1,242 nt of DNA, from assembly GCF_003334385.1 (NCBI RefSeq), contig NZ_QOWN01000120.1. One strand, 5' to 3'. Both the position numbers and the translations under genes were made by a program. The stretch's first letter is position 1, and the number at the start of each line of letters is the position of its first letter. The notes below the pieces were generated by a model that saw only the letters and a program-made list of their open reading frames with translations, had not been told where the DNA came from and made no database searches. Origin of the DNA: Escherichia coli (GTDB lineage Bacteria > Pseudomonadota > Gammaproteobacteria > Enterobacterales > Enterobacteriaceae). This document shows positions 693-1,242 of this stretch, in pieces.

Positions 693-859
693 TCGCCATG
701 CTCCGCATCACGTTTCTTTTTCTGACCTGCCGGACGTCGCACCGTGATGTACTCCGCCTTTCCCAGGCGAACCAGCACCTCCGCACACGGCTGTGCCACA
801 TCACGGATATCCCCGGCCCGGGCATCATGCGTGCCCTGCAGATATCGGATCTTTGCCAT
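638..859 (-). CDS. Hypothetical small protein (73 aa) between capsid and portal genes; function not assignable from sequence (possibly a head-completion or adaptor-type protein by position only)
   Basis: ORF in track: MAKIRYLQGTHDARAGDIRDVAQPCAEVLVRLGKAEYITVRRPAGQKKKRDAEHGECGTFYGEPEKTRNQDVT. ATG is the first start after an in-frame TAA. G/C-rich third positions and a balanced, charged composition look like real coding, unlike the alternative-frame ORF 643..828. Its 3' end overlaps the proposed portal start by 55 nt (638..692) in a different frame. No family recognised by eye; no evident similarity to lambda gpW. Confidence 0.45.
   Translation of the reverse strand: MAKIRYLQGTHDARAGDIRDVAQPCAEVLVRLGKAEYITVRRPAGQKKKRDAEHGECGTFYGEPEKTRNQDVT
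701..704 (-). promoter_or_regulatory. Candidate Shine-Dalgarno (GGAG) for the portal gene
   Basis: Minus-strand GCGGAGcatggcgaATG: GGAG lies 8 nt upstream of the ATG at 692. Seen directly in sequence; lies inside the coding region of the upstream small ORF. Confidence 0.4.
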
Positions 860-869
860 AACCTGTTAC

Positions 870-887
870 GGGAGGCGCACGCCTCCC
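870..887 (-). promoter_or_regulatory. Perfect inverted repeat GGGAGGCG-ca-CGCCTCCC (GC-rich stem-loop) in the capsid / small-ORF intergenic region
   Basis: Plus 870..877 GGGAGGCG is the exact reverse complement of 880..887 CGCCTCCC; the 2-nt spacer implies about a 7-bp stem with a 4-nt loop in RNA. No U-tract follows it on either strand, so it is not a canonical intrinsic terminator. It lies between an AAGGAGG (896..890) and the small-ORF ATG (859). Confidence 0.5.
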
Positions 888-889
888 GT

Positions 890-896
890 CCTCCTT
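890..896 (-). promoter_or_regulatory. Strong Shine-Dalgarno-like AAGGAGG downstream of the capsid stop
   Basis: Minus-strand TGAgtcTGATAAGGAGG: a perfect 7-nt SD core, but about 30 nt upstream of the small-ORF ATG at 859 in linear sequence, with the hairpin in between. Confidence 0.35.
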
Positions 897-903
897 ATCA
901 GAC

Positions 904-1242
904 TCAGCTGCCGGACGCACTGCCGTAGTTCACTCCGGTGATCACCGCCACCGCCGCGGTACGGCGACGACGCCAGTTGATCCAGCGCTCCGCACGGATG
1001 GCCACGCTGCCTGTCTGGAACATGGAAACCAGCTCCACCGGCGACGGCGTGGTACTGTCGCCGGTCGGCTCAGACTGCATTTCCAGTGATGCCTCGCGGG
1101 ACATATCCACTGCCACGCCGCCGTCATCCGCCAGATAAATATCCGGGGCATTCACCAGCACCAGCTGGTCACCCACGTACTGGGAGACAATCACCGGCAG
1201 CCCCTGGAAGGAGCCACCCAGCAGGGTCATGTCCGGGTATTC
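904..1242 (-). CDS. Major capsid protein, HK97 fold (Pfam Phage_capsid PF05065-like); C-terminal 112 codons, 5' end beyond window right edge
   Basis: Minus-strand frame is open from the window edge (EYPD precedes the internal Met at 1230 that the ORF track used as start) to TGA at 906..904: EYPDMTLLGGSFQGLPVIVSQYVGDQLVLVNAPDIYLADDGGVAVDMSREASLEMQSEPTGDSTTPSPVELVSMFQTGSVAIRAERWINWRRRRTAAVAVITGVNYGSASGS. The pattern GLPV(V/I)..VGD...D..GV.V..SRE...F...VAIRAE.R....R.AAV matches my recollection of the conserved C-terminal region of HK97-type capsid proteins (LWG-PVV...VGDF...DREG..VEVS.E...F..N.VAIRAEERLAL.V.RP.AF). G/C-rich third positions. Family call is by motif memory, not search. Confidence 0.65.
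   Translation of the reverse strand, partial: EYPDMTLLGGSFQGLPVIVSQYVGDQLVLVNAPDIYLADDGGVAVDMSREASLEMQSEPTGDSTTPSPVELVSMFQTGSVAIRAERWINWRRRRTAAVAVITGVNYGSASGS

Follow-up and report, generated by a model that had tools for sequence, protein, structure and literature searches.

How is a small gene translated when its Shine-Dalgarno (SD) sequence lies 30 nt from the start codon and a GC-rich hairpin occupies the interval? The question is raised by a 1,242-nt stretch of Escherichia coli DNA from contig NZ_QOWN01000120.1 (hereafter the window, meaning the whole stretch that was analysed), whose coding strand is the minus strand and which carries the end of a capsid gene, a small open reading frame (ORF) and the beginning of a portal gene. 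The element in question is the 44-nt intergenic spacer between the capsid gene and the small ORF, amounting to 3.5% of the window. Judged from its sequence and that of its relatives, this spacer is probably a split translation initiation region for the small gene, in which the hairpin bridges the SD and the AUG.

On the minus strand the junction reads GGC AGC TGA (906-904) GTC TGA (900-898) TAA (897-895) GGAGG ACGGGAGGC GUGC GCCUCCCGU AACAGGUU AUG (859-857) (Table 1). Direct reading thus confirmed the layout described in an earlier sequence-only reading of the window, that is, capsid stop, AAGGAGG SD, perfect GC-rich hairpin and ATG, and its estimate of about 30 nt between SD and ATG agrees with the 30 nt that we measured. 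The 18-nt inverted repeat that it reported is indeed perfect, but its length had to be revised: the arms (889-880 and 877-868) comprise 10 + 10 nt with 100% complementarity and 2 nt between them, for 22 nt overall, and in RNA form the repeat makes a 9-bp GC-rich stem with a 4-nt loop (889-868). Likewise, once the hairpin is folded, the 30 linear nt from the end of the SD to the AUG are reduced to 8 unpaired nt, instead of the 10-12 nt previously supposed. We take UAAGGAGG to be a perfect 8-nt complement of the 3' end of 16S rRNA. No usable proximal SD was found in the 8-nt spacer AACAGGUU, which contains only an AGG, 3 nt from the AUG.

Table 1. Coordinates of the capsid-small ORF spacer and of the genes around it in the 1,242-nt window
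Feature	Position	Strand	Basis
Capsid stop TGA (906-904), then in-frame GTC, TGA, TAA; three stops in four codons, the last overlapping the SD	895..906	-	sequence
Shine-Dalgarno UAAGGAGG, flush with the hairpin, 30 nt linear upstream of the AUG	890..897	-	sequence; P(unpaired) 0.73
Hairpin 5' arm ACGGGAGGC	881..889	-	inverted repeat, folding, covariation
Hairpin loop GUGC	877..880	-	folding; relatives vary in loop sequence and length (3-5 nt)
Hairpin 3' arm GCCUCCCGU	868..876	-	inverted repeat, folding, covariation
Unpaired 8-nt spacer AACAGGUU, hairpin foot to AUG	860..867	-	length kept in relatives (5-8 nt), sequence not
Small ORF, 73 codons + stop; conserved 40-aa N-terminal domain, basic tail; last 18 codons overlap portal	638..859	-	ORF list; PHROG 829; coding signature; homolog alignment
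Head protease-major capsid fusion gene, 3' end (full 645 aa)	907..1242	-	PHROG 617/6538 major head protein; BP-4795 and RefSeq E. coli annotation (major capsid protein or prohead protease)
Portal gene, 5' part, start ATG 692-690 (MWN...)	1..692	-	PHROG 2271/12 portal; annotation; start kept in FSL SP-016
Conventional GGAG SD of portal, 8 nt before its ATG; contrast case	701..704	-	read from sequence; conserved in Salmonella phage FSL SP-016

Folding of the minus strand, which the sequence-only reading had proposed as a check, gave the isolated hairpin a free energy (dG) of -18.9 kcal/mol (z = -4.58), and none of 200 shuffles folded as well. Within a 211-nt context the arms paired with a probability (P) of ~0.97-0.99 and the SD was mostly free (P unpaired 0.73). 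The window contains no other perfect hairpin of at least 9 bp with a loop of 3-8 nt, and any hairpin of this kind appeared in 72 of 2000 dinucleotide shuffles of the window (3.6%). Conversely, an 86-nt fold of the wider region was not unusual (z -0.81), indicating that the signal is confined to the hairpin itself. No Rfam 15 family reached its gathering score; the best hit, sroE, scored 17.8 bits where 51 are required (E 0.44).

To compare the element across relatives, we extracted the segment from capsid stop to small-ORF ATG from 172 loci, including E. coli, Salmonella, Citrobacter, Kluyvera, Pantoea, Kosakonia and others, which yielded 52 distinct spacers. Four traits were constant among these 52: the GGAG core stopped within -2 to +1 nt of the stem's first pair, the stem had 7-10 pairs, the loop measured 3-5 nt, and 5-8 nt separated the hairpin foot from the AUG, for a linear SD-to-AUG spacing of 24-31 nt. 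The majority form is (A)AGGAG[G-GCGGGG-GAAA-CCCCGC-C]-N7-AUG, and E. coli has two forms, AAGGAGG-ACGGGAGGC-GUGC-GCCUCCCGU-N8-AUG and GAGGAGG-GCGGGAGGU-GAGA-GCUUCCCGC-N8-AUG; among the remainder are GGAG-CGGGGGC-GAAA-GCCCCCG-N8-AUG (locus L089) and GGGAGG-GCGGGGCG-AAUGG-UGCCCCGC-C-N8-AUG (locus L084). Our SD parser missed 15 rows only because RNAfold lengthened the helix, and all 15 visibly have GGAG(G) before the stem. Over these spacers and a set of 45 aligned variants together, linear SD-to-AUG spacing was 23-31 nt, and the GGAG(G) core was nearly invariant in the 45. What varied was the sequence of the loop (GUGC, GAGA, GAAA, GGGAU, UCU, AUU, CAAAA, AAUGG and GCGA) and of the 3' spacer, as well as the gap separating capsid stop and SD (2-11 nt). 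This drift in the stop-to-SD distance indicates that insertions and deletions do occur in the spacer, but not where they would change the geometry of SD, hairpin and AUG.

Covariation was evaluated in an alignment (A4) of 45 sequences and 10 named pairs, using as controls 3' partners slid by 1-3 columns and 500 column shuffles. Standard pairs occupied 95.5% of cells, as compared with 52-63% with slid partners; both sides had changed in five of the 10 stem pairs, and none of the 500 shuffles reached any of five measures. For instance, columns 18-40 contain GC in 39 sequences, AU in five and GU in one, and columns 24-35 contain GC in 31, AU in 12 and CG in one. Three stem pairs are flipped in L089, the E. 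coli stem is longer through matched insertions in both arms, and locus L045 has a G-U intermediate between the A-U and G-C states. Since G-U pairs would be C-A mismatches on the opposite strand, the structure belongs to the mRNA. A palindrome acting as a protein site at the DNA level is disfavoured, because the G-U pairs fit the sense RNA only and the length of the loop varies.

An initiation region requires a gene to serve, and several lines of evidence bear on the small ORF. Its product falls in phrog_829 (function unknown) in a PHROG search, whereas a Pfam search gave no hit for the protein and its profile found nothing among PDB sequences. Relatives down to ~35-45% identity turned up in protein searches (exhaustive and word-indexed), in tblastn and in scans of viral and genome collections; they come from Salmonella phage FSL SP-016, from genomes of Citrobacter, Kluyvera, Pantoea, Phytobacter, Entomohabitans and Kosakonia, and from many uncultivated viral contigs. 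The locus scan for relatives used a trimmed protein alignment. All of them have in common, within the first 40 residues, the pattern M-A-K-I-R-Y-L-Q-x-T-H-D...G-D...A-x-V-L-V-L-L-G-K-A-E-Y, followed by a variable basic tail, and in all of them the conserved N-terminus M-A-K-I-R-Y-L-Q starts at the equivalent of AUG 859. Among 66 unique N-terminal coding sequences, differences at codon positions 1, 2 and 3 numbered 14,793, 11,427 and 33,500, and the ratio of synonymous to nonsynonymous codon differences was 22,787:19,337 in frame, as opposed to ~1:15 in the other two frames. As far as can be told from these comparisons, the small ORF is a real gene, with predicted translation from AUG 859.

Most relatives of the small protein are 55 aa long, their ORF ending in TAATG, whose ATG is the portal start. 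In the E. coli lineage, the ancestral TAA seen in Salmonella, Citrobacter and others has become GAA, so that the small ORF reads across the portal SD and ATG, is 18 codons longer and overlaps the portal gene out of frame by 55 nt (638-692). AlphaFold2 modelled the N-terminal 40 codons (window 741-859) as a confident beta-beta-alpha-beta mini-domain (pLDDT ~87). The best fold matches in the PDB were N-domains of ribosomal protein L9, with a root-mean-square deviation of ~1 A over 40 aa and 25-32% identity, although the match is not significant (Foldseek E 0.07); further fold matches, to the B. subtilis prophage protein YqbF and DUF7210 phage proteins, came without sequence-profile support. An L9-type identity has no support from profiles (hhalign probability 1.8%). 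Two deviant copies were noted. In L084 (2501-2524), the gene caller began the small ORF at an ATG in the hairpin loop, in frame and 9 nt after the SD, adding MVPRRIE ahead of the conserved MTRIRYLQ, which points to a calling error or else to an alternative start peculiar to that lineage. In L055, an E. coli viral contig, the ORF is frameshifted (MAKIRYLQGTHDARPGISVMWHS...), evidently in a decaying prophage copy.

The conserved features match those expected of an SD brought near its AUG by a hairpin, and for this reason we chose the split ribosome-binding site (RBS) as our reading of the spacer. At 30 nt, the SD is too far from the AUG in linear terms (more than about 15-20 nt); the stable stem-loop in the interval leaves 8 unpaired nt here and 5-8 in relatives, within the about 5-11 expected of such a site; no other SD or start codon is conserved at conventional spacing; and the stem is conserved with covariation in related phages, with few independent events. 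The same layout is found in gene 38 of phage T4, which forms part of the support. A split RBS of the T4 gene 38 type had been put forward in the sequence-only reading, which also proposed a covariation analysis of the stem in homologous loci; that analysis did find covariation, and the split RBS is the explanation best supported by the conserved geometry, the covariation, the lack of a conventional SD, the coding-like ORF and the T4 layout. The late-gene starts inspected in BP-4795, a prophage of the type to which the window belongs, all have their SD 5-8 nt from the start codon with this one exception, indicating that the small-ORF junction is a deliberate one.

We infer that ribosomes initiate at AUG 859 by way of the folded hairpin. 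The 9-bp hairpin would fold on the late mRNA, and the folded stem would set UAAGGAGG at ~8 unpaired nt plus the width of one helix end from the AUG, allowing a 30S subunit to pair with the SD and yet reach a start codon that is 30 nt away linearly. This arrangement may set a modest level of the small protein and, through coupling, of portal, relative to the abundant capsid.

Several observations weigh against this reading. Most relatives share one GGCGGGG/CCCCGCC stem, so that independent covariation events are few, and two clades (E. coli and L089) contribute part of the signal. Folding over 211 nt predicts an AUG that is mostly paired with downstream coding sequence (P unpaired 0.10). Two distant loci with the same gene order, L088 and L091, have a conventional proximal SD: in L088, a hairpin follows the capsid stop and precedes the SD, and the low-GC L091 has AAAGGA-N8-AUG, the inferred ancestral junction, with no GC hairpin. 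As these loci use a normal SD, the bridge is not needed by the whole gene family, and the bridged layout is specific to the enterobacterial clade. Additionally, the bridge model leaves the retention of a non-coding hairpin unexplained; the hairpin might be there chiefly for some other function, the RBS having simply been fitted in around it. Two rearranged junctions were also seen among these loci. L091 carries a ~400-nt insertion (1765-2182) between capsid stop and small ORF, flanked by the direct repeat GGCAGCCTGAAA. Locus L093, from Citrobacter sp. Cu233 (~1440-1500), keeps the small ORF, a 7-nt spacer and the 3' arm of the hairpin (CCCCGCC), with unrelated sequence in place of the 5' arm, the SD and the capsid gene; retention of only the 3' half indicates a rearrangement breakpoint at the hairpin loop.

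What primary role might the hairpin have? It could be mainly a post-capsid mRNA element, such as a barrier to 3' exonucleases or a processing end that stabilises the capsid segment, or else a weak attenuator, and the SD would then be incidental. We regard this as unlikely, despite the fact that capsid is needed in large excess over portal, whose gene is here downstream of it, and that L088, too, has a hairpin right behind the capsid stop. Canonical elements composed of a hairpin and a U-tract exist elsewhere in the same late operon, and a U-rich tail (AUUUUGCAU) satisfies the terminator scan (5 U in 8) in 10 of the 45 variants; however, the U-tract is absent from the window, where the tail after the hairpin is AACAGGUUAUGG and the scan found no terminator-like site, and from all E. 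coli variants. The earlier judgement that the hairpin is unlikely to be an intrinsic terminator therefore holds for the window, and we rejected this candidate, as a U-tract occurs in those 10 relatives only. Lambdoid late transcription is Q-antiterminated and passes terminators, which also counts against termination after the capsid gene. As to processing, an RNase III site needs about two helical turns (roughly 20 bp) of double-stranded RNA, and the stem has 9 bp. A post-capsid element needs neither a flush SD nor a fixed 5-8 nt to the AUG, both of which are conserved while the stop-to-SD distance drifts, and it would leave the small ORF, a real gene, without a usable SD. A stabilising or attenuating role may, in any case, coexist with the SD bridge.

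The hairpin might also be a translational operator, bound by a phage protein (the small basic protein, capsid or portal) that would repress the small ORF and portal, in the manner of thrS, rpmE or the MS2 coat-replicase hairpin. The GGCGGGG/CCCCGCC stem is much better conserved than the sequence around it, the tail of the small protein is rich in lysine and arginine and its N-domain, as modelled, superimposes on the rRNA-binding N-domain of L9, and stem-loops within initiation regions act as operators in rpmE and thrS (PMC7297116). Nevertheless, an operator should conserve loop or bulge nucleotides, and here the 3-5 nt loop is free in sequence and length, which, together with the flipped pairs of L089, fits poorly with sequence-specific recognition; the likeness to L9, for its part, is neither significant nor backed by profiles. 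This makes an operator improbable. A broader proposal, that the hairpin is a regulatory switch coupling small ORF and portal expression to capsid production, we consider quite unlikely. The switch could work through autogenous repression, if the small basic, L9-N-domain-like protein bound an operator between SD and AUG, or through capsid translation, if ribosomes finishing the heavily translated capsid gene, whose end is 2-14 nt upstream, occluded the SD or melted the stem, so that downstream initiation would fall as capsid translation rose. Least probable by far is initiation at the loop GUG (880-878), with unwinding of the stem, translation of a 4-codon mini-ORF, GUG CGC CUC CCG UAA (880-866), and reinitiation at the AUG 6 nt further on. 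Its spacing in the window is ideal, 9 nt after the SD, and the in-frame UAA closely precedes the AUG; a GUG mini-ORF ending in UGAUG that overlaps the start occurs in some class-B E. coli variants, and L084 has an in-frame AUG in the loop. Yet a start codon 4-12 nt after the SD occurs in only 9 of the 45 variants, never in the majority clade and not in several E. coli variants, and it would be poorly accessible in the loop of a -19 kcal/mol hairpin; we rejected the mini-ORF for its lack of conservation.

Three further candidates were tried and discarded. The GGGAGG in the 5' arm, previously suggested as an SD-like element that folding might sequester, is specific to E. coli, its relatives having GCGGGG, and sequestration is thus not general. 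Readthrough of the capsid stop, or bypassing, is contradicted by the three in-frame stops and by the absence of a matching landing codon. A -1 frameshift at the A-run CGAAAAAAC (658-668, six A's), which lies within the 55-nt overlap and would take ribosomes from the small ORF to the portal frame, is unnecessary because portal has its own conserved ATG, preceded by GGAG at 8 nt in both E. coli and FSL SP-016.

The window corresponds, with 97-99% identity, to the head module of BP-4795-type lambdoid (Stx) prophages, which include the genus Marienburgvirus and many Stx1a/Stx2-converting phages. The annotated order is TerS, TerL, the 645-aa head protease-major capsid fusion, a 73-aa hypothetical protein, portal and head-tail connectors. 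We found this head module in 1,244 of 5,426 complete E. coli genomes, with up to 7 copies per genome, and the 61-nt spacer region by itself in 1,017 of them. The portal protein of this family has ~860 aa (the PHROG 2271 profile is 859 long), and its gene is annotated in different ways: as two coding sequences in BP-4795 (L001 6551-9297) and FSL SP-016 (L002 6551-9135), as a frameshifted pseudogene in RefSeq E. coli, and in relatives as a ~450-aa portal followed by a separately called ORF of 337-355 aa with a faint CBM_5_12 hit. The split may reflect an annotation error that keeps recurring, or else a genuine programmed event. The BP-4795 late operon also contains two terminator-like GC-hairpins with a U-tract, one in the gap between TerL and capsid (L001 ~4352-4385; gaccgctgcggcggtttttttatttt) and a second directly ahead of the tape-measure gene (L001 ~12232-12260; aaaacctgctgtggcaggtttttttt). 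The window has two more inverted repeats within coding sequence, in the capsid gene (1037-1065, 9 bp perfect, 11-nt loop) and in the portal gene (487-518, 15 nt, 80% complementarity).

If the spacer does act as a split RBS, it would be a natural, phylogenetically supported bridged SD in very common temperate phages unrelated to T4, since the same head module is carried by Stx1- and Stx2-converting phages and by roughly a fifth of complete E. coli genomes. Gene callers and models of RBS strength that use linear SD spacing would mis-score or mis-start the small gene; L084 is called from the loop ATG, and several phage records omit the small ORF. The junction would also offer a compact natural test case for accommodation of a structured spacer by the 30S subunit, and it bears on how unequal amounts of protein are obtained from one late transcript in phages ordered capsid, small ORF, portal. 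Were the regulatory switch true, phages in which the capsid gene precedes the portal gene would have a novel means of adjusting the capsid:portal ratio. Searchable literature, queried among others for BP-4795 with hairpin and for the protein accession, contained no description of this spacer element. Split or accommodated RBSs are a known but rare kind, of which we did not find this instance described.

To our knowledge, hairpin-bridged SDs are known from two T4 genes and have been demonstrated experimentally only in T4. In gene 38, a stem cuts the distance between SD and AUG from 22 to 5 nt, and in gene 25, at the 26-25 junction, from 27 to 11 nt; for both genes, mutations and probing have established that initiation is enhanced by the stem (reviewed in PMC3014915). 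Our direct reading of the gene 38 region gave GCA-UAA-GGAG, an 8-bp stem (AGAGGGGC/GCCCUUCU), a UUCG loop, AAAU and AUG. The upstream stop overlaps or adjoins a UAAGGAG(G) SD in both gene 38 and the window, and in both a GC-rich hairpin of 8-9 bp with a 4-nt loop starts from the 3' end of the SD and leaves few unpaired nt before the AUG; spacing is reduced from 22 to 5 nt in one and from 30 to 8 nt in the other, with dG of -16.7 and -18.9, respectively. They differ in that the phage lineages are unrelated (T4 as compared with a lambdoid siphovirus prophage), with no sequence homology, that gene 38 encodes a tail-fibre assembly protein and the window a small head-module ORF, and that the proof is mutational in T4 and the evidence comparative here.

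The 'accommodated' RBS of gene 25 resembles ours in its limited distribution: about 30 T-even phages have kept its stem, which more distant relatives lack (PMC3014915), much as the window hairpin is restricted to one clade, with L088 and L091 as outliers that have a normal SD. A difference between them concerns coding, as the window hairpin is wholly non-coding, and its retention consequently needs a separate explanation. The T4 26-25 junction, which is associated with the work of Nivinskas 1999 and Malys & Nivinskas 2009, reportedly involves the end of the overlapping upstream gene 26. Stable, conserved stem-loop operators interrupt the noncontiguous initiation regions of E. coli thrS and rpmE (PMC7297116), and a conserved stem-loop likewise splits the initiation elements in the window; there, however, the stem lies between an AU-rich enhancer and the SD and is an operator for repressor binding, whereas here it lies between SD and AUG and its loop sequence is not conserved. 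Finally, the terminators and 3' stabilisers of lambdoid late operons share with the window a GC-rich hairpin right after a highly expressed gene, but in the window the hairpin is not followed by a U-tract and sits tightly between an SD and its AUG.

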